From Bacteroidota bacterium (lineage in GTDB: Bacteria > Bacteroidota > Ignavibacteria > UBA10030 > UBA8401): a stretch of DNA of 64,000 bases. The stretch lies in NCBI GenBank assembly GCA_040751955.1, contig JBFMFY010000001.1:73405-137404 (forward strand), written 5' to 3'. This document shows, one piece after another, positions 1,203 to 28,786 of the stretch; within the stretch, counting starts at the first letter, position 1, and each line of letters begins with the position of its first letter. The position numbers were made by a program, and so were the translations under genes. Under the pieces are notes generated by a model that saw only the letters and a list, made by a program, of their open reading frames with translations, was not told the DNA's origin and searched no databases.

Positions 1203-2230
1203 GCAAAGACTTGGTTGTACACGGAAAGTGTTTTTTCAGCCACTTTATTCCAAAGAAATTCTTTCTTGATATGATGCTGTAAGACGGAATTTTTTTTCTT
1301 GTTCAACGCTGATTGTATTCCATTTGAAATGGATGCTATATCGTACGGATCGACGTATTCCGCCATCGTTTCAAAATAATCTTTAGTCCCTCCGAATGGT
1401 GTAATGACTATTTTAGCACCGGCAAGTCCCGCTTCAAGAGCAGCGATGCCGGGTGTCTCAAACATTGACGGCAGAGCAAACACATCGCACGCAGCGTATG
1501 CAGAGGCGAGCATCTCTGAATTGTTCTCCAGACCCGGAATGATTAGAACGTTCTTGTTTGCTTTTGCTTCTTCCACACATTGTTGTCCGAGAGTCCCTTC
1601 GGCTACTTTTCCGATGATAACAGATGGATGATCGATCTGCTTGAGTGCGCGGATAAGGTTGAGAACGTTTTTTCTCTTCGGTCCAATGTGCCCTACGTTG
1701 AGAATGAAATTCTCCATTCCATATTTCTTTTTAAACAATGATGGATCGCCATGCTCAAATCGAGCTTCTACACCGTTGGGGACGATGTGGATTTTCTTGG
1801 ATTCGATGTTCATCCCTTCAGAGATCAATCGCCCTTCATCGGTCGTATTTGGGAGAACTGCAGCTGACAAATCACAAATCTCCCGGGTAATCTCGTACCC
1901 AGTCCATACCGCAGGTTTTATTTTTCTTACCCAATTTGTTGCGGCAATCGTCGTACGTATGGCAGAAGGAGAATGCCGTGTAAAGAAAATTGGAGAGACA
2001 ACAAAAGGGATTCGATAGGAATCCAATATTTTTGCAGTGTGATAAGTACCGATATTTGCGGCAAAGATGTGAAAACGCAATTTTTCGGTGGTGGAGTAAT
2101 GCTTCCATGGATCGAACAATTCAACGTCAACCCCCAGGCGTTCAAGTTCATTCTTTGTTTGCATGATCTGAACACGAGGTCCGCCATGGATGATGGATAC
2201 TGGCTGATACCCTGCAAGGATGATTTTCAT
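1199..2230 (-). CDS. Glycosyltransferase family 4 (GT-B, Glycos_transf_1-like)
   Basis: 343 aa GT-B protein with a GT4-like architecture. Translationally coupled to both neighbours (4-nt overlaps). Confidence 0.75.
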   Translation of the reverse strand: MKIILAGYQPVSIIHGGPRVQIMQTKNELERLGVDVELFDPWKHYSTTEKLRFHIFAANIGTYHTAKILDSYRIPFVVSPIFFTRHSPSAIRTTIAATNWVRKIKPAVWTGYEITREICDLSAAVLPNTTDEGRLISEGMNIESKKIHIVPNGVEARFEHGDPSLFKKKYGMENFILNVGHIGPKRKNVLNLIRALKQIDHPSVIIGKVAEGTLGQQCVEEAKANKNVLIIPGLENNSEMLASAYAACDVFALPSMFETPGIAALEAGLAGAKIVITPFGGTKDYFETMAEYVDPYDIASISNGIQSALNKKKNSVLQHHIKKEFLWNKVAEKTLSVYNQVFA

Positions 2231-3774: not shown

Positions 3775-4754
3775 ATATACAATGACCGTATCACTTGATG
3801 CAGCTGCTCGGTACGCAATGTCTGTGGAAAATTTTCAATGATCCTTTTTCTTGCTTTCTTCCCTGCGTCTGCATTCAGCATGAGGGCGTTACGGATGGCA
3901 CTAACGATATCGTTACGCCGCTCGGGATCAACAATGAATCCAGTATCACCGATGCCGTTTGGAATGCCGAACCTGTCCGATCCAACGGGAATGCATTCGC
4001 ACAGCATCGCTTCGCAGAGAGAATTTGGCAAACCTTCGTGTCTTGACAGTTGGCAATAGACATGAGCCCTCTGGTAGTACAGCAGCAGTTCTTCTTGAGT
4101 AAGCGAAGGGTATATGTGGACATTGTCGGGAACGGAGAATTGTTGTGCAACAGATTCTGCAATGCCGATGATGATAAATTGTACATCTGTCATGTTGTGT
4201 GCAACATCGAGGAGAATATCAAATCCTTTTTTCTTGAACCGCGCCAGCGTATGTATAGAACCGACACTGAGAACGAAATTCTCTTTCACCGCGCCGGGTT
4301 TCCAGCGTTCAGGATCGTATCCTGTCGGTACGACCTGAATGTTGTGTCCGTCGTACTTTGCCAATCGGATCGCTTCACGCTTCAATGACTCGTCAACAGC
4401 GAGCACGGCATCGGCATGGGTTATTCCGTAACGGACAATTATCGCCTTCCACCAGCTGTTCCAAATTCCATAGTCATATTCTTTTTCTTTTGCAACATCA
4501 ACACCGCCAAGAATGATGATCGATTTTTTCCCGAAGAGTTTTGCGATGAAGACCAGTGTTGATGAATACACTGAGGCAAACCATGAGAATGTAATATCGC
4601 AGTGTCTGATCTCATTCAGGAATTTCCTGAACGTACCGACTCCGGACGAGATGACTTCAGTGACAGAGTATTGCGAACGGAGTGTTTGCAAATCTTCCTG
4701 AATGAAAGGGGTTGAAAAAGTAGCAGTGAACAGTATTCTTGGTTTATTGTTCAC
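3771..4754 (-). CDS. Glycosyltransferase family 4
   Basis: Contains the RHEGLPNSLCEAMLCECIPV motif (EX7E, Glycos_transf_1). 327 aa. Confidence 0.8.
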   Translation of the reverse strand: MNNKPRILFTATFSTPFIQEDLQTLRSQYSVTEVISSGVGTFRKFLNEIRHCDITFSWFASVYSSTLVFIAKLFGKKSIIILGGVDVAKEKEYDYGIWNSWWKAIIVRYGITHADAVLAVDESLKREAIRLAKYDGHNIQVVPTGYDPERWKPGAVKENFVLSVGSIHTLARFKKKGFDILLDVAHNMTDVQFIIIGIAESVAQQFSVPDNVHIYPSLTQEELLLYYQRAHVYCQLSRHEGLPNSLCEAMLCECIPVGSDRFGIPNGIGDTGFIVDPERRNDIVSAIRNALMLNADAGKKARKRIIENFPQTLRTEQLHQVIRSLYI

Positions 4755-4768
4755 GTCGAAGAATGATG

Positions 4769-5653
4769 TTACAAGAGAAACGAGAATGAGAATGTATGGG
4801 TGGAGGTAAATCCCTCCGTGAATGGAACAAATGCATAATCGAACTTTACAATGCCGTAGCGCACGCCGAATCCACTTGTGAGAGATGTGTTGCTGTATCC
4901 CGTCCTGTACCCGGCACGAATTGCAAAGAGTCGATCATACATCGCTTCAACACCCGCATTGAAATGTGTCTGTTTGTCATTCAGTGTTTTAACAACATCT
5001 GCAGCGCCGATAAGAGAGATTTGTTCGATCCCGGAATAATTGTATGCAGCGCCTGCACGTATGGTTGTTGGCAATTCGGTCGCTTGACTTCTCAGCACAT
5101 TCATTGAACCGATATTCAGGATGCTTGCGCCGAACATAAGATCGTCGGAGTACCGGTACGATCCGCCGATATCGAATCCGTATCCCGATGCTTCATCAAC
5201 AAAGATCTTTTCATATAAAAACTTTCCGGTAAGACCGACTGCAAGTCGTTCGTCGATGGAGAATGAGAGCGTCATTCCTAATGCAAAATTCTGTGCGCTG
5301 AATGTTCCTTCGGGAGGACCCGGTTTTGTTCGAACTTCAATTTCCCCCACAGATGTATTCAGTGCGGAGAAACCGTAACTGAAATTCTCGCCCAGTACCG
5401 ATGCGCCAAGATACTCTGATGATGTCTCAGCAATCCATTCTTTGTGCATCAATTGAAGTTCATGTTCTTTTGCAAACCGCAACGAGGCGGGGTTGTAAAA
5501 AAGGGAAGAGTGGTCCGATGCCATTGCGGTGTACGCTTCGCCCATCGCAATTGAACGCGCACCCACGCCCAGTTTCAGGAACGACAATCCCGTTCCTGTT
5601 TCTTGAGCTGCCGCGCTTCCGGCTATAAGGATGATGAAGAAAGATTTTTTCAT
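4769..5653 (-). CDS. PorV/PorQ-family outer-membrane beta-barrel protein (T9SS-associated, FadL-like)
   Basis: Signal peptide followed by GxGARxxAMGxA...NPAS near the N-terminus, as in PorV/LptO-like proteins. 294 aa. ATGA overlap with the paralog upstream. Confidence 0.6.
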   Translation of the reverse strand: MKKSFFIILIAGSAAAQETGTGLSFLKLGVGARSIAMGEAYTAMASDHSSLFYNPASLRFAKEHELQLMHKEWIAETSSEYLGASVLGENFSYGFSALNTSVGEIEVRTKPGPPEGTFSAQNFALGMTLSFSIDERLAVGLTGKFLYEKIFVDEASGYGFDIGGSYRYSDDLMFGASILNIGSMNVLRSQATELPTTIRAGAAYNYSGIEQISLIGAADVVKTLNDKQTHFNAGVEAMYDRLFAIRAGYRTGYSNTSLTSGFGVRYGIVKFDYAFVPFTEGFTSTHTFSFSFLL

Positions 5654-6624
5654 TGAAGTTTTATTGAAAGGGCAAGGATATGCATGGCAAAAACATTGTA
5701 CGGCTCAACAACATACGCATACGTGAATGACGGATTCCAGTCATTCACTTCAGTCCGGACCGTGAATCCGAATGACGGGTGTGCTTGTTTTGTATCTTCC
5801 AGATCCCAACCATCCAATCCTGAACGAAGCGTCACGTACTCATTGACGGTATATTCGGCGCCGACCCGCAAGATGTTTGTTGCTCGATTGCTGTTCTCAT
5901 ATTCCACCGACAAAACGCCGGATTGGTTTTCCAGAGTGTACGAAATTCCGATTGCTTTCCGTATGGGAAATTTTTCGGTGGTCGTATTCCCTTCGGTATC
6001 GTACAACGGTGACGTATCCCACCTGTACTTGGCGTTAAGATCTTTCACCACCGCACCGATGACAATATTCGATGTCAACGAGTACAATACCCCGACATCA
6101 AATCCTAAACCGGTTGAAGACAGATCTTCGAACAATGAATAGTAATAAATCTTGGTGGATAAGCCAAGTGTGATCTTTCTGATCTTCAATGCAAACGACA
6201 GACTGAATTGATTTTCCGACGTCGAATACGTTTCTGTATGGAATCCGTCGATATCCCTTCCGTCAATATCTGAAACGCCAGTGTTGAGGATCCTGACTGC
6301 AACGCCGGCATTCGTGTCGATCGGTTGTCCGTAAAATAATGCATTTAAATTTCTGTCTAACGAAAGCGCACCATATGAAAGGGTGGCATATTGTCCATCG
6401 AGGTGTTTGACTGATGCAGGATTGTAATATCCGGAATTTTCTCCATGCAATACGGCAATCATCGCATTTCCCATTCCCATTCCCCGCGCGCCAAATCCCA
6501 ATCGCGTTGCTGCACCCGCCGTGCCGGCAAGCTGCGCATTCGTGATACTCGAGACGAGGATACACAATAGTGCGATATTCAATTTATTGGATGACAAGAA
6601 TTTTTCCCCAGCGTGGTTCGTCAT
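5650..6624 (-). CDS. PorV/PorQ-family outer-membrane beta-barrel protein (paralog)
   Basis: Has the same GFGARGMGMGNA...YYNPASV N-terminal signature. 324 aa. The start may be internal, because the listed ORF overlaps the upstream gene end by 41 nt. Confidence 0.55.
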   Translation of the reverse strand: MTNHAGEKFLSSNKLNIALLCILVSSITNAQLAGTAGAATRLGFGARGMGMGNAMIAVLHGENSGYYNPASVKHLDGQYATLSYGALSLDRNLNALFYGQPIDTNAGVAVRILNTGVSDIDGRDIDGFHTETYSTSENQFSLSFALKIRKITLGLSTKIYYYSLFEDLSSTGLGFDVGVLYSLTSNIVIGAVVKDLNAKYRWDTSPLYDTEGNTTTEKFPIRKAIGISYTLENQSGVLSVEYENSNRATNILRVGAEYTVNEYVTLRSGLDGWDLEDTKQAHPSFGFTVRTEVNDWNPSFTYAYVVEPYNVFAMHILALSIKLQ

Positions 6625-8158
6625 TATCGATTGTCAGTTGATAAAAATATACACCGTTACTCACGAATTCATTCTTTTCGTTTCTTCCGTTCCAGATCTC
6701 GTCATGTTCTCGGTTCGGTTCACGCAGAACATTTTGCACGATTGTCTTCACGAGGTTCATCCCATAATCAAAAATTCTCAGATTTACTTCTACACTGCCC
6801 GGCTTTCCGGTGGTATAATGAATTCGCACGATCTCATCATCCGGCGCAAACGGATTGGGATACGCGTATGTGTCTGTTTTTAAAGCGAGAGATTGAGATG
6901 CGTGAATGATGTTCCAGTTACTTCCAAACGGATTCGATGCATTATCAATTGTCGTTACAGTGCCATCCACTCCGCCAAACCACGCAGTGTCACCATGCGC
7001 TGCTGCGGAGTAAAATGCGGTTTGAGTATATCGTTGACGATTCATCGGATCATAGATCGTTCCAGTTTTAATCCACGACGCGCCGAAATCGCTTGAACGA
7101 AAAATTCCGTTGTCGGTCGGGATATAGACGACATCCCCTTTGAATCCAAAATTATGTGGAAACTCTTGCAGCAAAGTCTGTTTCCACGTCATCCCTCCGT
7201 CGTCGGAATAACTCACGCCACGTACTTCTGTATTGTCGTTCGCATTGATGGTTGCTGCCCACATGATCTTCTTCGATCCTGTCTGTTGATGTCCGAGTGC
7301 AACCACAAAATTCCCGCTGATAGGCTGGATCTGATTTTGTTTTGTAAATCGAACCCACGATTTGCCATTGTCGGTAGTTTTATTGATTCCTCCTGCTGTA
7401 CCGATCCAGATAGTGGAATCATTCTCAGCGAACACGGAAAATGCGCGATGGTTCAGATTTTCCCTTAGTCCGAGCGCGCCTCCGCTTGGGGAAAGATCGA
7501 AAGCGAGAGAGTCGTTGATAGATATTGAGTTCAAATTATCCGGTGGAATGATCACACGCTGCCACGTCTGTCCCTTGTCGGTTGATCTTCGGACCATTCC
7601 GGCAAACGATGTAATCCACACAGCGTTGTTTGTTAATGCGATATCGTACGTAATGTTGTTGATAGCAGTCGTGATCCCCAAAGCGCGAATCGTACTTTTC
7701 GAATTCCAGAACAGCGTATCGACATTGTTTGTGTCGAGCGGCTGGGGAATCGACACCCATGTTATTCCGCCATCCGTCGAACGTTTGAATCCGCTTCCTT
7801 CCGGCAGTGATGCATCGTTGCGGATCACGGAATGAGCGGTGGCTACCCATATCTCATTGCCGCGCACTGCAATAGCAGAGACATCTTCAGTGCCGAACTC
7901 CGGTGTGTTATAATAATTTTTCCACGATCTGCCGCCATCAATGGAACGGCTCAAACCTTTTCCCGTGCCGAGCCAAATGGTGTCGTTTTGAATGACGATA
8001 TCAGTGACAACATTGCTTGCCGGTAATGATTGAGAAACAGATGCCGATTGTAACGAAAGCGACAATGAACGGGGAATGGAAATCTGTGCAATCGCATTGA
8101 ATGAGATTGAAAGAAGAAGCAAAACAATGCGTGTGTATTTATTGAATGACGATGTCAT
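6584..8158 (-). CDS. BNR/Asp-box repeat beta-propeller protein with T9SS C-terminal sorting domain (secreted cargo)
   Basis: Six SxDxGxTW Asp-box repeats (SIDGGRSW, STDGGITW, STDKGQTW, TTDNGKSW, SDDGGMTW, SSDFGASW). C-terminus NPFAP...GVYFYQL...KILVIQ is a T9SS CTD. Start placed at the internal ATG (residue 58 of the ORF) just ahead of the signal peptide MTSSFNKYTRIVLLLLSISFNAIAQ. The longer ORF would overlap the upstream gene. Confidence 0.65.
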   Translation of the reverse strand: MTSSFNKYTRIVLLLLSISFNAIAQISIPRSLSLSLQSASVSQSLPASNVVTDIVIQNDTIWLGTGKGLSRSIDGGRSWKNYYNTPEFGTEDVSAIAVRGNEIWVATAHSVIRNDASLPEGSGFKRSTDGGITWVSIPQPLDTNNVDTLFWNSKSTIRALGITTAINNITYDIALTNNAVWITSFAGMVRRSTDKGQTWQRVIIPPDNLNSISINDSLAFDLSPSGGALGLRENLNHRAFSVFAENDSTIWIGTAGGINKTTDNGKSWVRFTKQNQIQPISGNFVVALGHQQTGSKKIMWAATINANDNTEVRGVSYSDDGGMTWKQTLLQEFPHNFGFKGDVVYIPTDNGIFRSSDFGASWIKTGTIYDPMNRQRYTQTAFYSAAAHGDTAWFGGVDGTVTTIDNASNPFGSNWNIIHASQSLALKTDTYAYPNPFAPDDEIVRIHYTTGKPGSVEVNLRIFDYGMNLVKTIVQNVLREPNREHDEIWNGRNEKNEFVSNGVYFYQLTIDNDEPRWGKILVIQ

Positions 8159-8999
8159 GCTTAACAGGAAGACTTTTTGTGTTTGCCAGATCAATTGCTT
8201 CAAAGACAAAGCGACGTGTTCCTTTCGGAACATCAGGCGGAAGAAAGAGCGTGACAGAATATTTTCCATCACCCGGGATTCTATCAGTGTTGCCGTTTCC
8301 AGCAGTATTGTCTTTGCCTCCGTCGTCAAACAGCCTAATTGGAAGACCGCGTGGATTCACAGTGTCGGGTAGTAGGTATGCATTAAAAAAAACCTGAGCA
8401 ATGTCCGCTGTTCCATCTTCATCACGCACATAGGCAAAGATTTCGACTGTCTGAGGTGTAGTGCCGAGTGTTAGAGTATCCGGGACTTGAACTGAATCAA
8501 TGACCGGATTTCTGTTATTTCGGGTGACAGTGTAGAATGTTGTAATTGTGGGACTTGTTGCCTGCGAATTGCCCCCTTCAACCGATACGATCAATTTTCC
8601 GTAGTAACTACGTTTAACAGAAAAATCTACGGATCCGGAGTATATGCTGTCTCCGCCGATAACATCCGGAAAAATTCCTTCGTCATTAAGAGAAGCAAAA
8701 CCTATTGAAGAATTATTCTGAAACACTTTGATAGATGTCGAAAGAGAAATTTGATTTCTATTTCGATTAGCTTTTACAAATACATTTGTGGCGAGAGAAA
8801 TATTATCATTGGGTGTTTGCGCACCGTTGACGAATATTGAATCTGTATTGACACTGTCCGGCGTGATGGTGATCGATGATACTGTCAATGTCTCTACCGT
8901 CGGTTCGATTACAGAAGAATCTTCAAGCGAGCACTGCAGGTTGATGACGGCAAGTAGAGCCGCTAAGGTAAGAAGAGTATGTCGAGTTGATTTCATCAT
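8139..8999 (-). CDS. Secreted hypothetical protein (signal peptide; possible T9SS/surface protein)
   Basis: N-terminal MMKSTRHTLLTLAALLAVINLQCS signal peptide. No recognisable catalytic motif. First ATG is at 8999; the ORF-track start at 9002 is TTG. Confidence 0.5.
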   Translation of the reverse strand: MMKSTRHTLLTLAALLAVINLQCSLEDSSVIEPTVETLTVSSITITPDSVNTDSIFVNGAQTPNDNISLATNVFVKANRNRNQISLSTSIKVFQNNSSIGFASLNDEGIFPDVIGGDSIYSGSVDFSVKRSYYGKLIVSVEGGNSQATSPTITTFYTVTRNNRNPVIDSVQVPDTLTLGTTPQTVEIFAYVRDEDGTADIAQVFFNAYLLPDTVNPRGLPIRLFDDGGKDNTAGNGNTDRIPGDGKYSVTLFLPPDVPKGTRRFVFEAIDLANTKSLPVKHDIVIQ

Positions 9000-9000
9000 C

Positions 9001-9029
9001 AAAAAAAAACCGAGGCTTTATCCTCGGTT
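9001..9029 (-). terminator. Rho-independent terminator after the M50 protease operon (hairpin ACCGAGG...CCTCGGT plus U9), abutting the start codon of the downstream gene
   Basis: Inverted repeat at 9009-9028 followed, on the minus-strand RNA, by about nine U residues. Confidence 0.5.
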
Positions 9030-9168
9030 CCTGATAAAGCAGTCTGCAATGAAAAAGTTGTTGAGTGCTATAAAACTGACAATTACTTCGTATCGAACTT
9101 TTCTATGGCTGACTGCCTGTTGTTAATGATTCTGGACTATGATACCGAAATTTCGCCCGATTGTCAAA

Positions 9169-10107
9169 CTAAAAACTGATGTTGAATGGGGAGGGAGCAA
9201 AACAGACGATAAGAATTCCATATGTAATCCAACCGATCAATTTTCTGTTCTGATCCAACTCAGTTTCATCGTTAACCGGGGGGTGATACAATTTTACAAA
9301 AAAGAATAAGATCAAAGCCCAGAATAACCATCCCGACCAGCCGTAGGGAGATCCGACGCCCAATTCGGGAAGCCAGCCGATAACTCCCATCGAAAGAATT
9401 ATTACGAATGCAATGCGCGAAATGATCTTGTGCTGATCGCCAAACATTGCATACGACAAATGTCCGCCGTCCAACTGTCCGACAGGGATCAGATTCATTG
9501 CAGTAACGAACAAGCCAAACCATCCTGTGATTAAGAACGGATAGTGATACATCTCGGTCATTGGCGGAATGAATTCGCGCGTGGGATCAGTTAGTGAGAG
9601 CGAGAAAAAATTGTACAGCATCGACGATCCGAATTCGAGTGCAACTCCCCCTTCTTGTCCCGTTCCGGAAAAATATTCGGGATGGATCTGCAAAATAAAT
9701 TCTTTGCCTGGGAGATGAGTAAATCCATAGATCAACACTCCTAAGGTTGCGATAAACCCGGCGATTGGTCCCGCCACACCGATGTCGAACATCGCTTTCT
9801 TTGAAGGAATAGGAGAGGTTGTCCTGATTACAGCACCGAACGTACCGAAATTGAGAAATCCGGGCAATGAGGGAGAGGGAATATAATACGGTAATGTTGC
9901 GCTCACTCCGTGATAGCGCGCTGCAAAGTAATGTCCGAACTCATGGCAGGTGAGTATGAACAATATTGAAAGTGAGTAGGGAAGCCCTGCCGTAAAGTTG
10001 TACAGATCAAACGGATCGAGATTTAGCCACGAGACTCCGGCAACCGTTGTTGTAAAGAATGTGATGATGAAAAGTGTACTGTGTATGATTATTTGCTTTA
10101 TAGTCAT
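9169..10107 (-). CDS. Peptidase M50 (site-2 protease family) membrane metalloprotease
   Basis: HEFGHY HExxH motif within a TM region, and the NLIPVGQLDGGH motif (LDG) conserved in the S2P family. 312 aa, multiple TM segments. Confidence 0.8.
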   Translation of the reverse strand: MTIKQIIIHSTLFIITFFTTTVAGVSWLNLDPFDLYNFTAGLPYSLSILFILTCHEFGHYFAARYHGVSATLPYYIPSPSLPGFLNFGTFGAVIRTTSPIPSKKAMFDIGVAGPIAGFIATLGVLIYGFTHLPGKEFILQIHPEYFSGTGQEGGVALEFGSSMLYNFFSLSLTDPTREFIPPMTEMYHYPFLITGWFGLFVTAMNLIPVGQLDGGHLSYAMFGDQHKIISRIAFVIILSMGVIGWLPELGVGSPYGWSGWLFWALILFFFVKLYHPPVNDETELDQNRKLIGWITYGILIVCFAPSPFNISF

Positions 10108-10109
10108 AA

Positions 10110-10928
10110 TTAAAGATCGATGTTGAATCCGATTCCGGAATACTCATCCTTTTGATCGTAGTATTCGCCGTGAATGCTGTTGCCGTTGTGATAAATGAAA
10201 TACAACTGAGTTCCTCTTCCGTTCCAATTCCCGATTTTTATTCCCGTCTGCAATTCATGCCGTGGTCTCATTCCTGTAACGGTGAATTGATATGCTGCGT
10301 AGAGATTGATCGCCTTCGTCACCGAGTAATGTATTTCTGATCCAACATAGAGTAATGACTTTGGTATTGACGTCGGATCGACGTGCCAGAGATATACAGA
10401 TCCGATATAGAAACGTAGCATATCATCCGGTTCATACCCGACTGTCAGATCGAAAAATTCTCTGCTGTACACTCGCGGACTCAATCCATCTTTCCATACT
10501 CCTGTCGGTCCGTCATAGTGTCCATCCACAAAATGCGCACTGATGTGGCTTAATCGCAATCGTGTTGTGAACACTCCGAGTTCGAATGTATCGCGATAAC
10601 TTGTATTGAATCCGAACAGGTAATCAACTGCATCAACCGGAAAATGGAAATTTTTTTCTCCGCGAAGAAGTGTGTATGTGAAAAAGTCTGAACCGATCGT
10701 CAGCAAGCGTCGTTTGTTCTCGTATTGATATCGTATGAGATCGATGGAATTCCCTATATCCAGCCGCAATCTGTTGTTGTTGGAATGCCAGATAAGTCCG
10801 ACGCGCGGTTCAAATGTGTTTGCAACGAGTGGCCTAAAATTAAGCGGTCCATTGTAAAACGCAAAACCTTCACCTTGAGAAAACAACAGAGAAGAGAAAA
10901 AAATAGAGAGCAGTGCAAACTTTTTCAT
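10110..10928 (-). CDS. Small outer-membrane beta-barrel-like hypothetical protein
   Basis: Internal start MKKFALLSIFFSSLLFSQ gives a signal peptide and an ATGA overlap with the upstream PHP gene. Alternating amphipathic, aromatic-rich segments suggest a beta-barrel. Confidence 0.45.
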   Translation of the reverse strand: MKKFALLSIFFSSLLFSQGEGFAFYNGPLNFRPLVANTFEPRVGLIWHSNNNRLRLDIGNSIDLIRYQYENKRRLLTIGSDFFTYTLLRGEKNFHFPVDAVDYLFGFNTSYRDTFELGVFTTRLRLSHISAHFVDGHYDGPTGVWKDGLSPRVYSREFFDLTVGYEPDDMLRFYIGSVYLWHVDPTSIPKSLLYVGSEIHYSVTKAINLYAAYQFTVTGMRPRHELQTGIKIGNWNGRGTQLYFIYHNGNSIHGEYYDQKDEYSGIGFNIDL

Positions 10929-12535
10929 TCCGGTGAAATCCAGATCGGGTTCGTGTAACAAAATCCATGACGGTCAGTCCCTTGTCCGTCGGTTGTAAAT
11001 CCTTCCGCTCTAATATACGAAAATGAGGAAACAGTTTCCCACTCGGAAATGGTGTGGATTGCGTACGGATCAGGAAAGGTGTTCTGTTCGATCAATATTT
11101 TTTCTTTTTTTCCGATTGTTCCGATATACACAATGATCGAAGTGAAGCGGCCGAACTCGGCAGACGTTTGTGCTTTAATTTTGAGAATGAATTTTTCTCC
11201 CCGTACCGTATCGCCGATTTTTCCATTGCCATTCTGATCTGTCTCAACTTCGATGACGATGAACGGTCCATTTGTAATGACGGAACGCCCCCGTTTTAGA
11301 GCGGCAATGACGGCGTTTTCATTCGGTGAGGAGAAGAGTGCGGTTTTCATCTTACCGAACAATTGAGTCTCTTTTTCCTTTATTGCAAAGAAAGGAATGC
11401 CGATCTGAATAAACCTGTTGAAATTTCCGTGCGCGTCGTTTCCCGCCGCAATAAATTTTTTCTCTCCCTTCAATAGCAACCACTTCCATACATCAAGACC
11501 GTTCCTGAACGAATCGGAAAGTTCGCCGTTCAGGATCTGAATGCCGTCCAATCCCGTCGAAGCCATATCACCTTTCGTCCATTCGCCGCGATTCAACAAC
11601 AGGCTCTGAAGAAAAGGTACCTCTTCAGTAGGATGACCGGCATAGGCAGCAACCGGCATCTCCTTGTTGTTCAGAACAGAGGGGACAGTGTGTTCACACT
11701 TGGTCTGCAACCATTTTTCAGCGCCGTCGCCGGAACCGTGAAAAAATTTTCTGTTGCCAAACAGAAGCAGATGAACTGTGCGCCCATCCGCATTTTCGCA
11801 TGATACTTCTTCACCACGCACAACTGCAAAATTTTGCTCATGGTGGTTGACGTCGGCAATTTCAGATTGAAAGTCTTGCCATTTTGGGAGTGTGGGATCG
11901 TTGACGAGATACGAATCGATGGAATCATCGAGATCGTACGAATGATCGGTGACGCAGAAGTATGAAAGTCCCATCGCTTTGCACAACGCCGGTGATGCGC
12001 CGATCGGAGATCCGAATTCGACCTGATCTTCGGTGTACGTTGAATGTGTATGGACATCGCCGAAGATCCATCCCGGGATCGAAGGGAGAGGAGTGCGCGA
12101 CCGATAGACGTTCAATGGTTTTTTTGTTGATGTGCGGTGATTATTATTAAGAATGGTTTTTATTTTTCCATTCTGCTTGATCGTCATTTCTACATCTACT
12201 TTAAGGTGACCGTATGTTTCGGAAAAATCATCCTTAAAGAAAATTTCTGTGACCTTCCACCAGTATTTTGATTCTATACGAATCGGGTGATCTGGCTGGA
12301 CGGTTTCAGAAAGGATGAATTTTCCATTCTGCCGCACAGTGATTTGTACTGAAATGATTTCAAACGGATACACGTGAGCATCTTTTGCCAACAACAAGAT
12401 CGGAAGCGGCTTGTCGGGATCCAATCGGTGCGGGGCGTCCGTTAGGATTTCCGGCTCCGGTTTTTTCAAGAAACTGAAAAAATATTTGAAACGATAATGC
12501 GTTTCAGCATACAGGAAGATTGGAGGAAATATCAT
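10925..12535 (-). CDS. PHP-domain (CehA/McbA-like) metallo-dependent phosphoesterase
   Basis: WIFGDVHTHSTYTED resembles the PHP-domain metal-binding motif (DxHxH). 536 aa. An N-terminal hydrophobic stretch is present. Confidence 0.55.
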   Translation of the reverse strand: MIFPPIFLYAETHYRFKYFFSFLKKPEPEILTDAPHRLDPDKPLPILLLAKDAHVYPFEIISVQITVRQNGKFILSETVQPDHPIRIESKYWWKVTEIFFKDDFSETYGHLKVDVEMTIKQNGKIKTILNNNHRTSTKKPLNVYRSRTPLPSIPGWIFGDVHTHSTYTEDQVEFGSPIGASPALCKAMGLSYFCVTDHSYDLDDSIDSYLVNDPTLPKWQDFQSEIADVNHHEQNFAVVRGEEVSCENADGRTVHLLLFGNRKFFHGSGDGAEKWLQTKCEHTVPSVLNNKEMPVAAYAGHPTEEVPFLQSLLLNRGEWTKGDMASTGLDGIQILNGELSDSFRNGLDVWKWLLLKGEKKFIAAGNDAHGNFNRFIQIGIPFFAIKEKETQLFGKMKTALFSSPNENAVIAALKRGRSVITNGPFIVIEVETDQNGNGKIGDTVRGEKFILKIKAQTSAEFGRFTSIIVYIGTIGKKEKILIEQNTFPDPYAIHTISEWETVSSFSYIRAEGFTTDGQGTDRHGFCYTNPIWISPE

Positions 12536-12545
12536 CGGGATTTTT

Positions 12546-13622
12546 CTATTGGTTCAACAAATGGCGAATCCGCTGCTGCAATATGGATGGATCGTACTTC
12601 ATTGCGGAAAAGCCGGAATATTCAGCTGACCGTGTCAGCGCACGTTCAAGATTAAACTCCGCCTGGCTTTCACAATAACAGATCTTGTTCTTCATCAACT
12701 CAGATGCAAGATATTCCTGCTCTGTCTGCTGCGGCGTCGGAATCAGTATCGCTTTCGCACCAACAAATGAAAGATCCATGACTGTACTATGTCCCGGACG
12801 CGAGATGATCATCCGCGACGAGGCAACCAGTTGAGACATTTCGCGTCCCGAAACTGCATTGATCATTGTGATATTCGGAGTCACTTTCATCATTGTGTTT
12901 TGTTCGGGCTTTCCACGCGCAAAGACTGCGACAAGTGAAGTATTCTTCAACTGTTCAAGGATCATTTCTTCAAAGATTGTCCGCTGCGGTTCAGGACCCG
13001 ATAGGATAACAAGCACGTCGATACTCTTTTCGATCTCCAGCCGTTCCAATCTCGTAAGCGGTCCGATGTAGTATGTGTTGTTCGGTAATTTCTTAGGACG
13101 AGCCAATTCGCCTGCAATATTTACAACGCCGGGAAAATCGGGCACCCATACTTCATCGTAGTTGTTACATTTCATCCGGTTAACGAATCGAACAACTCCG
13201 CGGCTCCATTGCAGCCACGGTGGAACCATAATGTTCAGCTGATGGATGACAAATATAGATGGAACTTTATTTGAATAAGCACCAAAGCGATTATCGGAGA
13301 TGACGGCATCAATTTTATATTTATCAATCAATGACTCCAAAACTTTGTGTTCCTTTGAAAACCCGTTGAGAATGGAAGGGAGCTGAACGATAATTGCACG
13401 TGTCAACGACTGTGTTGCCGAATAGTGAACGGAATATCCGGGAAATCGGATAAATTCCAAATGCGGAAACTCTTTTCGCAGCAAGTCATACGGACGATTA
13501 TCTGCTCCGATTATTACTTCGGCATTCTGGCGAAGCAATTCGTTGATGATGGCGATGCTTCGTGTTGCGTGACCTAAGCCCCAATCAAGCGGTGCAACAA
13601 GGATTCGTTTCTTCCGGCTCAT
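12546..13622 (-). CDS. GT-B glycosyltransferase (GT28/MGT/MJ1255-like, UDP-sugar dependent)
   Basis: N-terminal ILVAPLDWGLGHATRSIAI resembles the G-loop of GT28/GT1 family members (MurG/MGDG-synthase-like). 358 aa. ATGA overlap with the CE4 gene. Confidence 0.65.
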   Translation of the reverse strand: MSRKKRILVAPLDWGLGHATRSIAIINELLRQNAEVIIGADNRPYDLLRKEFPHLEFIRFPGYSVHYSATQSLTRAIIVQLPSILNGFSKEHKVLESLIDKYKIDAVISDNRFGAYSNKVPSIFVIHQLNIMVPPWLQWSRGVVRFVNRMKCNNYDEVWVPDFPGVVNIAGELARPKKLPNNTYYIGPLTRLERLEIEKSIDVLVILSGPEPQRTIFEEMILEQLKNTSLVAVFARGKPEQNTMMKVTPNITMINAVSGREMSQLVASSRMIISRPGHSTVMDLSFVGAKAILIPTPQQTEQEYLASELMKNKICYCESQAEFNLERALTRSAEYSGFSAMKYDPSILQQRIRHLLNQ

Positions 13623-14239
13623 CGGATTGCTCCGAATTCAAATCCAAGGTGTTGTATTTCGGTAATCGTCCGGTTCAAGACATTGGTTATTTTATGAAAT
13701 GTCAAATCGTTATCATGAAAGACGAGTATCGATCCTTTCCGCAGTTTCGAAATAGCAGTCGAAACGATCTTATCGTCAGACCAATTTCTGAAATCGCCCG
13801 TCAAGCAACTCCACATCACAAGTACGAAATTGAGTTCTTTTGCTGCCGCTATCGTGTTCCACGAAAAAAAACCAAACGGAGGGCGAAAGAGTCGGATTTT
13901 TTGGTTCGTCATCGATTGGAGCAGATGCTGAGTTTTCAGAATTTCTTCTTTTGTGCGCTCTTTGGAAAACGCAAGTGTCCGCGTATGCGTGTATGCGTGG
14001 ATGCCGATGGAATGTTCTTCTTCAACGATGCGTCGTACGATCTGTTCATTACCTGGAATATTTTTCCCTGTCAAAAAAAATGTGGCACGGATATTCATCT
14101 TTTTGCATACATCCAGCACCAATGGAGTTGCAGCAGGGTGCGGTCCATCGTCGAATGTGAGAAAGATTTTTTGTGACGGCATCCGCCACACCAATGAAGG
14201 GAAGAGCATCCGATGAATCATTCCGGTATGTGTGATCAT
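13619..14239 (-). CDS. Polysaccharide deacetylase (CE4/NodB family)
   Basis: All five CE4 motifs are present: TFDDGP, HAYTH, RPPFG, LVMWS and ILVFHD. The internal start MITHTG gives an ATGA overlap with the upstream GT2. The longer ORF would overlap that gene by about 330 nt. Confidence 0.8.
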   Translation of the reverse strand: MITHTGMIHRMLFPSLVWRMPSQKIFLTFDDGPHPAATPLVLDVCKKMNIRATFFLTGKNIPGNEQIVRRIVEEEHSIGIHAYTHTRTLAFSKERTKEEILKTQHLLQSMTNQKIRLFRPPFGFFSWNTIAAAKELNFVLVMWSCLTGDFRNWSDDKIVSTAISKLRKGSILVFHDNDLTFHKITNVLNRTITEIQHLGFEFGAIR

Positions 14240-15390
14240 GAAGCGGATTCCTTTTTCATGGTACGATCTTTCCATTCGAATGAAAAAAAGTATCCGCCAA
14301 TCGTAGCAACAAGGATCATCGGAATGTGAATAACAGCTGTCGGAATGAAATACTTCATCGCTTCGCGCGTCCCTGTGAGATGTGTAAATCTTCTCATGGT
14401 AATGTAATCCATTAAAAATTTTACGATCACCACTATCCACGGGACAATGTTCATCTGAATGAGTGTTAACGGAAGCATTATCGTCAATGTGACAAACATG
14501 ACAAACGTTGCAATCATAAACAACATCATGTATGGCGGATAATAAGCAGTTTGTCCAACCCATCTCAATCGTTGGTGGAGCATTTCACGGAACGACATGG
14601 CGGGTTGCGTAATAATAGTTGATTCGGGTGAGAGTGCAAATCGCGGTCTCCATCGTCTGCTGTGAGTAATTTTTTGCGCCAGCAGTGAATCGTCGCCGCT
14701 ATTAATGTGCTTTAACGATTCGAATCCTCCTTCGGTCTCAAACGCCTCCCTGCGAAATGCCATGTTGCTGCCGTTACTGATGAGCATGCGTTCCCACCCA
14801 ATCGCACCGGCGGCAATGGCAGTGTACGAAAGGAAATCCAGAAACTGAATTCCCCAGAACAGACGGTGCTGATTCTTATTTTTTTCAAATACTGTCAATC
14901 CTGTTACAACTCCGACATTTGCATCAAAATACGACATGACTGATGTGACCCATTTTTTTGGTGCGATGCAATCTGCATCGGTAGTAAGGATAATCGAACC
15001 GGATGCGTGCTGCATGCCGTGTGCAAGTGCTCTTATTTTGGGTGATGTAATATCGGTAAACTCTGAAGTTGCGACAAGCAAAACAGGAATTGGTGATCGC
15101 TGAGCGATACGCCGAACGATTTCCGCGGTAGCATCGGTCGATTGATCGTCAATGACGATGATGGATAGTTTTTCCTGAGGATAGTGCTGGTTCAAAAGTG
15201 AAAAGAGGCAGCGCTCGATGTTTTTTTCCTCGTTCCGTGCCGGAATAATGATTGTCACCGGAACCTGTTCAGTTGCTGTTCCGGGTGAAAGTTTTTTCAG
15301 TCCGCGAAAAAAGAAAAAGATTCTGTGTGCATAGATAATTATGAGAATTGAAAGAAGCAGTGAGCCGTATGTTACAATGTTCTCTACCAT
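14236..15390 (-). CDS. Processive family-2 glycosyltransferase (membrane; NodC/PgaC/chitin-cellulose-synthase-like)
   Basis: N-terminal TM, then IVIDDQSTD (DD), TTDADC (DxD) and HQRLRW (QxxRW), and C-terminal TMs. Start taken at the internal Met (MVENIV) adjacent to the upstream gene's stop. Confidence 0.8.
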   Translation of the reverse strand: MVENIVTYGSLLLSILIIIYAHRIFFFFRGLKKLSPGTATEQVPVTIIIPARNEEKNIERCLFSLLNQHYPQEKLSIIVIDDQSTDATAEIVRRIAQRSPIPVLLVATSEFTDITSPKIRALAHGMQHASGSIILTTDADCIAPKKWVTSVMSYFDANVGVVTGLTVFEKNKNQHRLFWGIQFLDFLSYTAIAAGAIGWERMLISNGSNMAFRREAFETEGGFESLKHINSGDDSLLAQKITHSRRWRPRFALSPESTIITQPAMSFREMLHQRLRWVGQTAYYPPYMMLFMIATFVMFVTLTIMLPLTLIQMNIVPWIVVIVKFLMDYITMRRFTHLTGTREAMKYFIPTAVIHIPMILVATIGGYFFSFEWKDRTMKKESAS

Positions 15391-16331
15391 TTCGTTTTTA
15401 ATCTCACGATCATCAATGAACCGATGGCGCTGGGGAGAAGAACATTGGCAAGGAACATACACATTGAGGCGTTGAACGCTGCTGCGGCTGAAACGCCGAC
15501 CTTTGAAAAGAAAAATATCGAAGCACTTTCCCGGACACCAAGATCACCGATGGATATCGGCAGGATAACCGCTTTGACGAAGTACACTGAAAGCGAACAG
15601 AGCACGGTATCAAAAAACGAGACAGACTCGAATGCATTGATAAATATGAAGAACTGTACGCCAATGATTGCATACAACATCGCGGTCAATGCAAAAAGCA
15701 GTCTCCCTTGTTGATTGAAGAAGGTCGTTTCTATGATGCCTATCATCGAATAGAGATTGTGTTGTCGTATTTTTTCTGGAATGTATTTTAAAAACTTTTT
15801 CATTGATTGAGGAAACAAAAAGACCGCACAGATCAGCACAAGAATCAGTACGATGGGGAGAACGTATAACAAATTCCAGTACTCAGAAAAATACTTTGCT
15901 GTATATACAGTAAGTGCCGATATCCCCGTAAGGAATGTTAAAGCAAGAATATAAAGTTTATCAATAATCGTTATTCCCACAACGTGACTTTTTCGCAATT
16001 CAGGATGGCTTGCAATGCGCCCTGCAATTTCACCCACCTGCGCCGGAGTGAAAAACCCTGCGGCAAAACCGACAAGGAGTGATGTAACAACTTCGCTATC
16101 TTGAATTTCCTTTGAAAGTAAACGAAGCAGATACCGCCATCTAATAAAATGGATCCCGGTATTCGCAATGACCAGCACAAACCCAAGTATCAACAGAGGA
16201 GTATTTGCCTGCCTAAACGAACGGACTATTTCATCAATCTCGATATAATAAAATAGTGCAACCAGGATCGAGAGAGTAATTGCAAACTTGAGCAGAAATG
16301 AGATGACCGGATGGGAAAAAAATTGTTTCAT
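15384..16331 (-). CDS. Flippase-like domain protein (LPG_synthase_TM / MprF N-terminal-like, UPF0104)
   Basis: About 8 predicted TM segments with IRWRYLL and FFTPAQVGEIAGR motifs characteristic of the lysyl-PG synthase TM (flippase-like) domain. 315 aa. Confidence 0.65.
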   Translation of the reverse strand: MKQFFSHPVISFLLKFAITLSILVALFYYIEIDEIVRSFRQANTPLLILGFVLVIANTGIHFIRWRYLLRLLSKEIQDSEVVTSLLVGFAAGFFTPAQVGEIAGRIASHPELRKSHVVGITIIDKLYILALTFLTGISALTVYTAKYFSEYWNLLYVLPIVLILVLICAVFLFPQSMKKFLKYIPEKIRQHNLYSMIGIIETTFFNQQGRLLFALTAMLYAIIGVQFFIFINAFESVSFFDTVLCSLSVYFVKAVILPISIGDLGVRESASIFFFSKVGVSAAAAFNASMCMFLANVLLPSAIGSLMIVRLKTKW

Positions 16332-17444
16332 CTATGCTGCAGCGCCTTTCCAGTCATATTTTTTTATAAATCCCATCGGTCCAATAACAATCGTGTAGCA
16401 GATGAGAAGAAGTTCATTCCGGAAGAACTCTGTTACCGTGAACTCTTCATTGAGTATCTTTTTTCCCTGAGCGATAATCACTGCATCGGCATTTATTCGA
16501 ACAAGAAAAAAAATAATGCTCCACAACGGAGTAACAAACAATCCTACAAGGAAAATCAAAAGATGCAGATGGAACAATCCAAGAAGTATTTTCATTTTTG
16601 GATCGTAGTACTTGCTCGCGGAGATATGCCGCGTCCGCTGATTAACAAAAGCTGCAACTGTTGTCGGCGGCACCGTGAGAATATAACTGTCGTAATCAGT
16701 CATGTATCGCACTTTCCACGATGTTTCTCGGCTGACGAGTTGCAAAAAGAGATCGTCATCGCCGCTCACGGAATGTTTAATCTTTTCGAAACCGCCGACC
16801 TCATCATATACTTTTTTCCTGTACGCAAAATTTCGCCCGGTACACATGTATGGCGTACCATTATTGATTGCCGCTGCGGCGTAGAGTGATCCTTTTAATT
16901 CTTCATACCGCAAAAAGGAAGGGAAGAGTCTGTTCCGATCAGGTAATTGAAATGGAGAATACCCTGCAACGGCACCTACGTCGTCGGTAAATTGCTCCGA
17001 TAATTTTTTTAACCACTGTTTCGGCACAACACAATCGGCATCGGTAAAAGCAAGAATGTCAAATCGTGCATTGGCAATCCCCGCGCGAAGTGCGTTCTTT
17101 TTGTGGGGCATGTCGGTTTCGTTTTTCAAGATCGAAATAATTTTGAGATTCGAGAGACGGGCAGTAAACTTTTCGGCAATCAACTTTGTCGAGTCGGTAG
17201 AACGGTCGTCAACAATGATGATCTCGAATTTCTCTTTTGGGTAGTCCAACTGAGAGAAAGAGTCTAACAACCGCGAAATGTTTTTTTCTTCATTCCTTGC
17301 GGCAATGATGATTGAAAAAGAGTGTATCTGGTCTGATTTATTTCCCGGGGTTGATCGTAATCCACGCCATTGCAACAATTGAATGAAAATTACACCAATC
17401 GTAGTGACTGCGAGTATCCAGAAGAAAAGTGTCTCAATAATCAT
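16332..17444 (-). CDS. Family-2 glycosyltransferase paralog (membrane) with degenerate QxxRW (QRTRH)
   Basis: IIVDDRSTD and FTDADC motifs are conserved, but the QxxRW position reads NQRTRH. N- and C-terminal TMs. The ATG start at residue 13 of the ORF is preferred; the ORF's first codon is TTG. Confidence 0.75.
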   Translation of the reverse strand: MIIETLFFWILAVTTIGVIFIQLLQWRGLRSTPGNKSDQIHSFSIIIAARNEEKNISRLLDSFSQLDYPKEKFEIIIVDDRSTDSTKLIAEKFTARLSNLKIISILKNETDMPHKKNALRAGIANARFDILAFTDADCVVPKQWLKKLSEQFTDDVGAVAGYSPFQLPDRNRLFPSFLRYEELKGSLYAAAAINNGTPYMCTGRNFAYRKKVYDEVGGFEKIKHSVSGDDDLFLQLVSRETSWKVRYMTDYDSYILTVPPTTVAAFVNQRTRHISASKYYDPKMKILLGLFHLHLLIFLVGLFVTPLWSIIFFLVRINADAVIIAQGKKILNEEFTVTEFFRNELLLICYTIVIGPMGFIKKYDWKGAAA

Positions 17445-17559
17445 TGTGCCCAAAATACGGAAACATTCACTTGCATTCAACGACTGAAAAAGGAGAGTGC
17501 CGTCTTAATTTAGCGGCACAACGTCATGCCGAACTTGTTTCGCATTTGTTTTGGGAAAG

Positions 17560-17579
17560 ATGCTGACATTCGTCAGCAT
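17560..17579. promoter_or_regulatory. Perfect 20-bp palindrome ATGCTGACATTCGTCAGCAT in the divergent intergenic region (candidate operator)
   Basis: Seen directly in sequence. It lies between the minus-strand GT2 operon start (17444) and the udk start (17685). Flanked by an outer GTCATGC...GCATGAC inverted repeat. Confidence 0.25.
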
Positions 17580-17684
17580 GACGAGTGTGTTAACAATTAA
17601 ATTACGACACTACCAAAAGGAGAATTCTGCCTTGCTTCTGCATCATCCTTCATCTATATTCTATTCGAAATTCTGAAAGTTTTT

Positions 17685-18311
17685 ATGAGACAACTTGTTA
17701 TTGGCATAGCCGGCGGAACCGGATCAGGAAAAACATCAGTCACCAACCGCATTCTTGAGCGGCTTCATGCAACGGAAAATGTCGTCGTCATTCAGCACGA
17801 TTCATATTATCGCGACATCTCTGCGTACAAAGGGAAAACACCCGATCAGATAAATTTCGATCATCCCGATTCTCTGGAAACATCCCTTCTTGAAGAGCAC
17901 ATCAAAGAACTGCGGTGCGGAAAACCGGTTGAGCAGCCGATCTATAATTTTACCACCCATTCGCGGATGAAAGAGACACGGCATCTTGAATCAAAGCAGA
18001 TCATTATTGTCGAAGGAATTTTGATCTTCGCTTCAGAGGAGTTGAGGAAACTTTTCGATATTAAAATCTTCATCGACACCGATGCTGATGAGCGGTTGCT
18101 TCGCCGTTTAAAACGGGATATTGTTGAACGGGGAAGGTCAATTGAATCTGTTATGAATCAATATGTCACAACCGTAAAACCGATGCATCTGGAATTTGTT
18201 GAGCCTAGCAAGCGTTATGCTGATATCATCATTCCGCGGGGGAGCGAGAATCTTGTTGGCATTGAAATGGTCGTTGTACGTATTGAGGCGTTGTTGAATT
18301 CGCTAAAATAG
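17685..18311 (+). CDS. udk: Uridine kinase
   Basis: P-loop GIAGGTGSGKTS plus overall uridine/cytidine kinase similarity. 208 aa. Confidence 0.9.
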   Translation: MRQLVIGIAGGTGSGKTSVTNRILERLHATENVVVIQHDSYYRDISAYKGKTPDQINFDHPDSLETSLLEEHIKELRCGKPVEQPIYNFTTHSRMKETRHLESKQIIIVEGILIFASEELRKLFDIKIFIDTDADERLLRRLKRDIVERGRSIESVMNQYVTTVKPMHLEFVEPSKRYADIIIPRGSENLVGIEMVVVRIEALLNSLK

Positions 18312-27013: not shown

Positions 27014-27127
27014 CATTCATCAAGAGTGGACGAGGGACTGACCCGATGACTCCACAGCAACCGGCGCTCCAAACAGCAGCGCGTCAGGTGCTACATTCAG
27101 AATCCGCTTGAGCGGAGAAGATGAACA
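27014..27127 (+). ncRNA. SAM-I (S-box) riboswitch aptamer
   Basis: Matches the SAM-I consensus: P1 UUCAUC...GAUGAA, AAGAG, GAGGGA, UGACCCGAUGA, GCAACC, GGUGCUACAUUC and AGAUGAA. Located upstream of metY-metX. Confidence 0.8.

Positions 27128-27433: not shown

Positions 27434-28786
<1,353 letters not shown>

Follow-up and report, generated by a model that had tools for sequence, protein, structure and literature searches.

What is made by a run of eight tightly packed genes that combines two membrane glycosyltransferases with a flippase-like protein, a deacetylase, a further glycosyltransferase, a PHP-fold hydrolase, an outer-membrane barrel and a membrane protease? The question arises from a 64,000-nucleotide stretch of DNA, here called the window, of a Bacteroidota bacterium of the class Ignavibacteria (GenBank assembly GCA_040751955.1, contig JBFMFY010000001.1, positions 73,405 to 137,404), in which these genes (g1 to g8) lie consecutively on the minus strand at window positions 9169-17444. 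An initial annotation had proposed, from the letters alone, that the run is an undescribed system for the synthesis, flipping and export of an amino-sugar glycoconjugate. We put the probability at roughly 55% that the operon encodes a cell-envelope pathway in which an amine-bearing glycolipid is synthesized, deacetylated and flipped, built on a synthase-deacetylase-flippase (SDF) core.

Gene limits were taken from a list of open reading frames (ORFs) at their most plausible starts, domain identities were assigned by Pfam and NCBIfam profile scans with curated cut-offs, and transmembrane (TM) and signal segments were called from hydropathy. The profile-scanned genes were those at window positions 183-45362; ORFs beyond 45362 lay outside the scan. 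From g1 to g8 the genes are spaced by 0, -7, -4, -4, +10, -4 and +2 nt. The ATGA overlaps first described at three junctions (14236/14239, 13619/13622 and 10925/10928) proved exact; the 7-nt overlap at the g2/g3 junction (ATGGTAG), where g3 starts inside the end of g2, had not been listed. The terminator placed earlier at about 9001-9029 was found by a terminator consensus scan, within a few bases, as a strong hairpin of 11 pairs with a U9 tract at 9032..9005. The same scan returned 15 weak sites inside the operon versus 10.9 +/- 3.3 expected by chance, none of them convincing, and the upstream uridine kinase gene (17685-18311) is divergent from g1. The transcription unit is therefore well delimited. 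Domain matches of the operon genes exceeded the Pfam cut-offs, with the exception of g6, which had no Pfam match, and all eight original domain assignments were borne out by the Pfam and NCBIfam searches.

Two of the genes encode membrane glycosyltransferases of family GT2, here called GT2a and GT2b. GT2a (g1, 16332..17444, minus strand) matches Glycos_transf_2 (98 bits) and Glyco_transf_21 (43 bits) and has one N-terminal and two C-terminal TM segments. Its DxD, GDD and QxxR(H/W) motifs are conserved, with D135, D137, D229, Q269 and R272 invariant in 63 homologues; its relatives in the PDB include ceramide glucosyltransferase and a minimal cellulose-synthase-like mannosyltransferase, and its best NCBIfam matches are all under cut-off. 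GT2b (g3, 14236..15390, minus strand) is GT21/HpnI-like, matches the same two models with 95 and 71 bits, has one N-terminal and three C-terminal TM segments, and carries the motifs DDxxxD, DAD, GDD and QRLRW. Its top PDB match is 6yv7 (69 bits), and its best NCBIfam matches (HpnB, HpnI and PgaC, 92, 86 and 75 bits) are far under the cut-offs; CruG matches as well. By sequence, both enzymes resemble GT21 lipid glycosyltransferases. The D,D,D,QxxRW signature occurs also in non-processive GT21 enzymes, and the earlier view of processive GT2s and a beta-glycan product is therefore unsupported. The third glycosyltransferase (g5, 12546..13622, minus strand) is a soluble GT-B protein with a GT28 C-terminal domain (Glyco_tran_28_C, 47.5 bits), similar to MJ1255 (TIGR00661, 52 bits against a cut-off of 196). 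It has neither a TM nor a signal segment, no MGDG_synth N-terminal domain was found by Pfam, and sequence and profile searches against solved structures gave nothing useful.

Between the two GT2 genes lies g2 (15384..16331, minus strand), which encodes a stand-alone flippase-like membrane protein of the MprF type (PplT/UPF0104). This 315-aa protein has about eight TM segments and matches LPG_synthase_TM over residues 13-304 with 82 bits (cut-off 33); its sole NCBIfam match is the flippase-like domain model TIGR00374 (46 bits, cut-off 43). W65, TPxxxGExxGR and DxGxRE are conserved among homologues, and the Pfam scan found no aminoacyl-phosphatidylglycerol synthase domain (DUF2156), so g2 is not a full MprF fusion. 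LPG_synthase_TM proteins have been tied to lipid translocation wherever they were studied (PMC5898192; 10.1101/2022.03.11.483950). The deacetylase g4 (13619..14239, minus strand) is a 206-aa de-N-acetylase of family CE4, with 116 bits against Polysacc_deac_1, 110 bits against NodB (cut-off 240) and 146 bits against PdaB (cut-off 237). Its residues D30, D31, H81, H85, R119 and H175 are invariant or nearly so in 74 homologues. Deacetylation is predicted to be cytoplasmic, because g4, like the GT-B and PHP proteins, lacks TM and signal segments. The catalytic motifs of GT2a, the CE4 enzyme and the protease g8, as well as the flippase-family motifs, are invariant or nearly invariant across 60-74 homologues. 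The junctions of 0, -7 and -4 nt from g1 to g4 thus bring together, adjacent and co-oriented, the GT2s, a flippase-only protein and the CE4 enzyme, as in an SDF module.

The gene g6 (10925..12535, minus strand) encodes a 536-aa PHP-fold metal-dependent hydrolase with two flanking beta-sandwich domains and a conserved N-terminal peptide rich in aromatic and basic residues (FLYAETHYRFKYFF). It shows the distorted (beta/alpha)7 barrel and the HxH, D/H, E, H, H and DxH metal ligands of the PHP superfamily, reaches 70 bits with the CehA/McbA metallohydrolase model (cut-off 80), and gave nothing useful in sequence and profile searches against solved structures. No TM or signal segment was detected by hydropathy. 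Two distant homologues do not have the conserved N-terminal peptide: its place is taken in P0351 by a multi-TM extension of about 160 aa and in P0374 by a segment resembling a signal peptide. The N-terminus is therefore likely to be a membrane-association element, and the topology may vary by lineage. The PHP protein is most likely a membrane-peripheral metal-dependent hydrolase whose target would be a phosphoester (or ester) in the acceptor or the head group.

Tight co-directional packing alone is ordinary operon structure, and the cluster rises above chance because of its conservation. The g6 protein is identical to one from a metagenome-assembled genome (MAG) at NCBI labelled "Bacteroidota bacterium", and its relatives carry the labels Ignavibacteriales, Ignavibacteriae or Bacteroidota. 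In a genome scan with one genome per GTDB species, g6 relatives were found in 358 genomes; 80 loci were examined and the window proteins mapped onto them, and counts were made on the 57 loci that extend 7.5 kb or more upstream of the PHP gene and on the 46 that extend 6 kb or more downstream. GT2a, the flippase, GT2b and the CE4 gene stand upstream of the PHP gene in the same orientation in 48 of the 57 loci. A third glycosyltransferase is likewise present in 48 of 57, either as the GT-B (27 of 57) or as an additional GT2 (at least three GT2s in 34 of 57); the GT-B is optional, being replaced by, or added to, a third GT2 in relatives. The homologues were thus found together, and the dispersal that would have spoken against a joint system was not seen. 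Gene order within the class is by itself weak evidence of function, because the M16 peptidase and uridine kinase genes beside the cluster are just as syntenic, as is the block d1-d4 downstream of g8 that is discussed below. Radical SAM genes, mostly of the SPASM type, are inserted in some clusters of the class (5942-6943 in locus L084 and 5926-7026 in L040), at the same position in L028 and L040. A MAG labelled I. album (L061) has a partial cluster. Several MAGs with exactly the same synteny are labelled Synechococcus sp., Acidobacteriota, Bacteriovoracaceae or Chitinophagaceae (L019, L084, L007 and others). These labels are probably binning or labelling errors, and taxon labels of the family need care; the homologue labelled Acidobacteriota, whose locus has the same synteny as the Ignavibacteria loci, was not counted as a separate phylum.

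More telling is the distribution outside the class. An exhaustive HMMER search for g6 (E<=1e-30) yielded 335 clusters (grouped at 50% identity), among which relatives matching over the full length reach down to 32% identity, and the high-GC relative P0373, used as a query, led to proteins labelled Gemmatimonadetes, Latescibacteria, Zhuqueibacterota and KSB1. Two or three GT2 genes, a CE4 gene, an LPG_synthase_TM gene and the PHP gene occur together with unrelated flanks in three loci. L086 (Gemmatimonadota) has the order Wzi-like, GT2, GT2, CE4, 271-aa protein, LPG_synthase_TM and PHP; L088 (KSB1) has GT2, radical SAM/SPASM, LPG_synthase_TM, CE4, GT2, a protein with a C-terminal domain (CTD) of the T9SS kind (type IX secretion), GT2 and PHP; L090, from a further lineage, has a divergent PorV-like gene, GT2, GT2, radical SAM, CE4, radical SAM, LPG_synthase_TM, DUF3108 and PHP. 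This re-association in three other lineages shows that the PHP protein truly belongs with the GT2, CE4 and flippase genes. The gene set is conserved in the class and in other phyla of the Fibrobacteres-Chlorobi-Bacteroidetes (FCB) group, with the PHP gene as its signature gene across phyla. Three further loci are reduced: L087 (Zhuqueibacterota) has DUF3108, a GT2a-like gene, a radical SAM gene, a toxin-antitoxin pair and PHP; L091 has the d1-d4 homologues, DUF3108, a GT2a-like gene, a radical SAM gene and PHP; and L089 has PHP alone. In the reduced clusters, the GT2 kept beside the PHP gene is of the GT2a type.

Radical SAM/SPASM genes are frequent accessories of these relatives (2886-3902 in L088, 5296-6399 and 7103-8170 in L090, 8805-9758 in L091 and 7900-8859 in L087); there is none in the window operon, and those of the relatives matched neither HpnJ, HpnH nor other named equivalogs. 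Outside Ignavibacteria, the slot beside the PHP gene is taken by DUF3108 in L087 (5988-6764), L090 (9161-9967) and L091 (6923-7693), for which literature searches returned nothing usable. In place of DUF3108, L086 has the Wzi-like outer-membrane protein (2680-4314) and the 271-aa protein, which is without annotation (7424-8239). Such exported or outer-membrane partners, varying by lineage, hint that the product reaches the outer membrane. Small genes of toxin-antitoxin type also lie within clusters (DUF4258/MqsA-like at 9187-9727 in L087, BrnA-like at 2566-2826 in L088); an 86-aa ORF of L088, considered as the precursor or recognition protein of a ribosomally synthesized and post-translationally modified peptide, looks like an antitoxin insertion instead.

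Taken as an SDF-type pathway, the operon would work as follows. GT2a, GT2b and the third glycosyltransferase (the GT-B in this organism) would add sugars, at least one of them an N-acetyl-hexosamine, to a membrane lipid at the cytoplasmic face. The cytoplasmic CE4 enzyme would then remove the N-acetyl group and expose a free amine, the PHP protein would carry out a hydrolytic, probably phosphoester, step, and the MprF-type protein would move the lipid-linked product to the periplasmic leaflet, that is, the outer face of the inner membrane. Inferred in this scheme are which sugars are added and to which lipid, in what order the steps follow, that the product is flipped, and what the PHP protein acts on.

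The general logic of the initial annotation, transfer of GlcNAc, N-deacetylation and MprF-like flipping, matches two SDF modules known from experiment and an archaeal gene context, none of which it had cited. HexSDF of Clostridioides difficile makes aminohexosyl-hexosyl-diradylglycerol by placing an N-acetyl-hexosamine on a membrane lipid and then removing the acetyl group, which gives an amine-bearing glycolipid (PMC10128005). Compared by description rather than by sequence, it differs in that HexS, its only glycosyltransferase, is an MGDG-synthase-like GT-B protein, and in its Gram-positive host without a PHP protein, a second or third GT2 or an outer-membrane component. GpgSDF of Pseudomonas aeruginosa makes GlcN-phosphatidylglycerol in a Gram-negative host with a synthase, a deacetylase predicted to be cytoplasmic, as g4 is, and a UPF0104/COG0392 flippase-like protein (PMC12713373). 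There, however, GpgS is a soluble GT4 enzyme, GpgD is of the COG3233 type and not CE4/NodB-like, a single sugar is added to a defined phosphatidylglycerol acceptor, and no PHP protein is involved. In archaea, the context of UPF0104 (arCOG00899) with a polysaccharide deacetylase and a glycosyltransferase was noted by Makarova and colleagues in 2015 (PMC5898192), and GT-A and GT-B fusions to the MprF flippase domain were catalogued in the PplT preprint (10.1101/2022.03.11.483950). These neighbourhoods and the AglD GT2-flippase fusions likewise join an MprF-type domain to a GT-A (GT2) enzyme and a deacetylase, for a predicted translocation of lipid-linked saccharides; they are predictions only, concern other lipid carriers and have no PHP partner. 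The conserved synthases of the present cluster are GT2/GT21-like, homologous neither to the GT28/MGDG-synthase-like HexS nor to the GT4 GpgS, and its GT-B is optional and without an MGDG_synth domain, so that it is analogous in function to Hex and Gpg without being their orthologue. It resembles the two three-gene systems but is larger and is shared by several related phyla, with a known principle and with different synthases, a CE4 deacetylase and a PHP step. The word "undescribed" is accordingly fair for this gene set, but not for the principle.

The last two operon genes stand apart from the core. The gene g7 (10110..10928, minus strand) encodes a DUF1207 outer-membrane beta-barrel of 12 strands with a signal peptide, its score of 24.8 bits lying just above the cut-off of 22. 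The fold is closest to the phospholipase OMPLA and not to an export porin; an OMPLA-type catalytic role, which takes His142-Ser144-Asn156, was not assigned, since the hhalign alignment with E. coli PldA had an insignificant score. The DUF1207 gene adjoins the cluster in 25 of the 46 loci, in the nearer clade only. The gene g8 (9169..10107, minus strand) encodes a membrane metalloprotease of the M50, site-2-protease type (Peptidase_M50, 71 bits, cut-off 27), in which HEFGH (HExxH) and N205..P208..D213-G214 (NxxPxxxxDG), the hallmarks of that family, are invariant in 61 sequences. It has at least five TM segments and no PDZ domain, and the RseP equivalog is rejected (18 bits against 148). Of the 46 loci, 30 have the M50 gene within 500 nt of the cluster, 15 have it at a distance of 3-4 kb and one lacks it; in L003, genes on the opposite strand stand between the cluster and M50, and the gene was absent from the clusters examined in other phyla. 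DUF1207 and M50 are lineage-specific neighbours, co-transcribed here and outside the conserved core, and M50 probably belongs to the conserved surroundings rather than to the pathway. The suggestions that the small barrel handles the product at the outer membrane and that the protease belongs to the system thus lose ground.

Several other readings were weighed against an amine glycolipid. No operon protein reaches the cut-off of any characterised pathway among the NCBIfam equivalog models, which agrees with the original impression that the locus fits neither Pga/Ica, Nod nor Hpn. One rival reading would have processive GT2s make a free or secreted oligo- or polysaccharide, similar to poly-N-acetylglucosamine and chitosan or to the NodBC product, with partial deacetylation by the CE4 enzyme and with g2 as a channel partner like PgaD or IcaD. 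NodBC and PgaBC-IcaAB do pair a D,D,D,QxxRW GT2 with a CE4 enzyme, and g1 and g3, with the same signature, align over most of PgaC_IcaA and of NodC; the scores (79 and 75 bits against a cut-off of 422; 31 and 36 bits against 550) are nevertheless far too low, as is that of g4 against NodB. A cytoplasmic CE4 enzyme without a signal peptide resembles NodB and departs from PgaB and IcaB, which act outside the cytoplasm. Among the window's scanned genes there was no match for PgaA, PgaB, PgaD, NodA, NodIJ, a TPR-porin or a polysaccharide co-polymerase, and the GT2s, with 1+2 and 1+3 TM segments, look like minimal GT21/PcManGT-type enzymes. The outer-membrane proteins found near the cluster in different lineages (DUF1207 here, Wzi-like in L086, PorV-like elsewhere) would suit a secreted glycan, whereas the LPG_synthase_TM family, tied as it is to lipid translocation, would not. 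We consider a polysaccharide product unlikely.

The glycosylation of a hopanoid, carotenoid or similar isoprenoid lipid has a model in the Hpn side-chain pathway, in which HpnI (GT2), HpnK (a YdjC-like deacetylase), HpnJ (radical SAM) and HpnL (LPG_synthase_TM-type) make bacteriohopanetetrol glucosamine and cyclitol ether. The parallel consists of a GT21-like GT2, a deacetylase, an LPG_synthase_TM-family protein and, as often in relatives (L084, L088, L090 and L091), a single radical SAM/SPASM gene or a pair of them separating the GT2 from the CE4 or flippase genes. HpnB and HpnI are the best NCBIfam matches of GT2b, and CruG matches it too, but g1 and g3 stay far under the cut-offs (HpnI, 52 and 86 bits against 310; HpnB, 57 and 92 bits against 379), g4 is a CE4 enzyme and not YdjC-like, and g2 matches only the generic TIGR00374. 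The radical SAM proteins of the relatives are SPASM-type rather than HpnJ or HpnH, the window operon does without one, and no hopanoid or carotenoid gene was found among the scanned genes of the 64-kb window. This reading therefore seems improbable. A different kind of objection is that the cluster is not one system and that a glycosylation module of five or six genes is merely co-transcribed with unrelated envelope housekeeping genes (PHP and M50), the order being kept by synteny. PHP and M50 do evolve slowly, as housekeeping genes do (43-80% and 52-80% identity across the class loci, against 26-75% for the flippase), the M16 peptidase, uridine kinase and d1-d4 genes are equally syntenic, M50 is often detached, and PHP stands alone in some loci. 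For the PHP gene, the recurrence beside GT2, CE4 and flippase genes in three other lineages, with completely different flanks, contradicts this reading. As an account of the whole cluster we give it little credence; it is probably correct for M50 and DUF1207, and not for PHP.

An amine glycolipid pathway also has observations to answer for. The cluster has no known product and no studied member, and the literature on Ignavibacterium and Melioribacter lipids and glycolipids gave nothing useful. The flippase assignment of g2 depends on a single Pfam/TIGRFAM family, sequence and profile searches of g2 against solved structures returned no match, and flipping is unproven even for HexF (PMC10128005) and GpgF (PMC12713373). 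The variable N-termini of P0351 and P0374 make the subcellular location of the PHP protein uncertain. Besides the equal synteny of the flanking genes, the PHP gene occurs without the neighbouring cassette in L051, L067, L074 and L089, and in L087 and L091 it is accompanied only by GT2a and a radical SAM gene. The unit may thus be two sub-modules, with GT2a and PHP forming a tighter one.

Downstream of the operon, the hairpin taken as its terminator closes, on the 3' side, a conserved RNA that shows covariation and has a promoter of its own. The hairpin can still terminate read-through from the operon. The promoter and a structured RNA of about 135 nt (9000..9167, minus strand) fill the spacer between the g8 stop and the d1 start. 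The promoter TTGACA-17-TATCAT (9167..9139) directly follows the g8 stop; then come a long helix, a conserved CUUUAU and the hairpin CCGAGG-AUAAAG-CCUCGG with nine U's, with the d1 start codon 3-6 nt further on. The conserved CUUUAU is complementary to the AUAAAG loop of this final hairpin. The spacer is conserved at the nucleotide level among species that share only about 55-75% identity in their proteins. The fold of the window copy has z = -4.35, and with the covariance model R1 a single copy was found at this site in each of 23 close and six more distant loci. Pairs changed on both sides number 10, where shuffles gave 4.4 +/- 1.4 and slid controls 1-4, in an alignment that was fitted to the model and includes three reverse-strand hits. 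The RNA has no Rfam match and has the look of a new cis-acting regulator (leader or attenuator) for the outer-membrane genes d1-d4, or of a small RNA. No known RNA or riboswitch of Rfam matched the operon leader or tail. Two small inverted repeats (GTCATGCTGAC/GTCAGCATC and CGGCAC..TGCCG) lie at 17514-17585 in the 240-nt spacer between uridine kinase and g1; they have no other copy within the window and match no Rfam family.

The d1-d4 block itself (4769..8999, minus strand) encodes, according to Pfam, a lipoprotein-like protein, a BNR beta-propeller with a T9SS-type CTD and a pair of PorV/FadL/DUF5723-like barrels. Throughout the class the block comes after M50, all four homologues stand directly upstream of the DUF3108-GT2-radical SAM-PHP genes in L091 (2009-6668), and a d4 homologue adjoins the cluster in L090 (1843-2808). 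This suggests, tentatively, that d1-d4 are functionally linked to the cluster. In several lineages, PorV/FadL-like barrels and proteins with a CTD are encoded next to the cluster or within it, and the window organism encodes Por_Secre_tail proteins. In Porphyromonas gingivalis, the linking sugar has its amine uncovered by VimE, a CE4 enzyme, and a peptide bond ties T9SS cargo to this sugar (PMC7468200). By analogy, the cluster product could conceivably be an amine glycolipid that anchors T9SS cargo covalently in Ignavibacteria, Gemmatimonadota, KSB1, Zhuqueibacterota and Latescibacterota, a proposal to which we attach a low probability. Speculatively, these lineages would not use the Porphyromonas-type Wbp/Vim linker of anionic lipopolysaccharide (A-LPS); the CE4 enzyme might free a nucleophilic amine as VimE does, the flippase might make the lipid available in the periplasm, PorV/FadL-like barrels and CTD proteins that travel with the cluster might use or move it, and the RNA leader might couple their expression to the pathway. 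The parallel lies in a CE4 enzyme that would free an amine on a lipid-linked sugar as the attachment point for secreted proteins, in FCB phyla with adjoining PorV-like and CTD genes. It is an analogy only: the precursor handled by the Wbp/Vim pathway is of the nucleotide-sugar or O-antigen type, and that pathway depends on VimA and the Wbp enzymes, none of which is in the operon.

Two other features of the window were recorded. Directly downstream of d4, a second block for envelope glycosylation at 183-4754 (minus strand) encodes a GT4 enzyme, a protein of 515 aa whose CE4 match is weak (18 bits), another GT4 enzyme and a GT9 heptosyltransferase-like protein; the block, also conserved in L001, resembles an LPS-core-type cluster. 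At 27014-27127 (plus strand) lies an S-adenosylmethionine (SAM) riboswitch (68 bits, cut-off 44), upstream of a pyridoxal phosphate-dependent enzyme of Cys/Met metabolism (27440-28786) and an alpha/beta hydrolase.

Amine-bearing glycolipids alter surface charge and the susceptibility to antibiotics or peptides in the only two systems studied, those of C. difficile and P. aeruginosa. Because the present cluster lies in the conserved chromosome core of hundreds of species, its product is probably a major envelope constituent and not a niche decoration. The PHP partner looks obligatory and could be a new enzymatic step in lipid head-group synthesis. If an amine glycolipid is indeed the product, the same principle would extend, with different synthases of the membrane GT2/GT21-like type, to a group of poorly studied environmental phyla.

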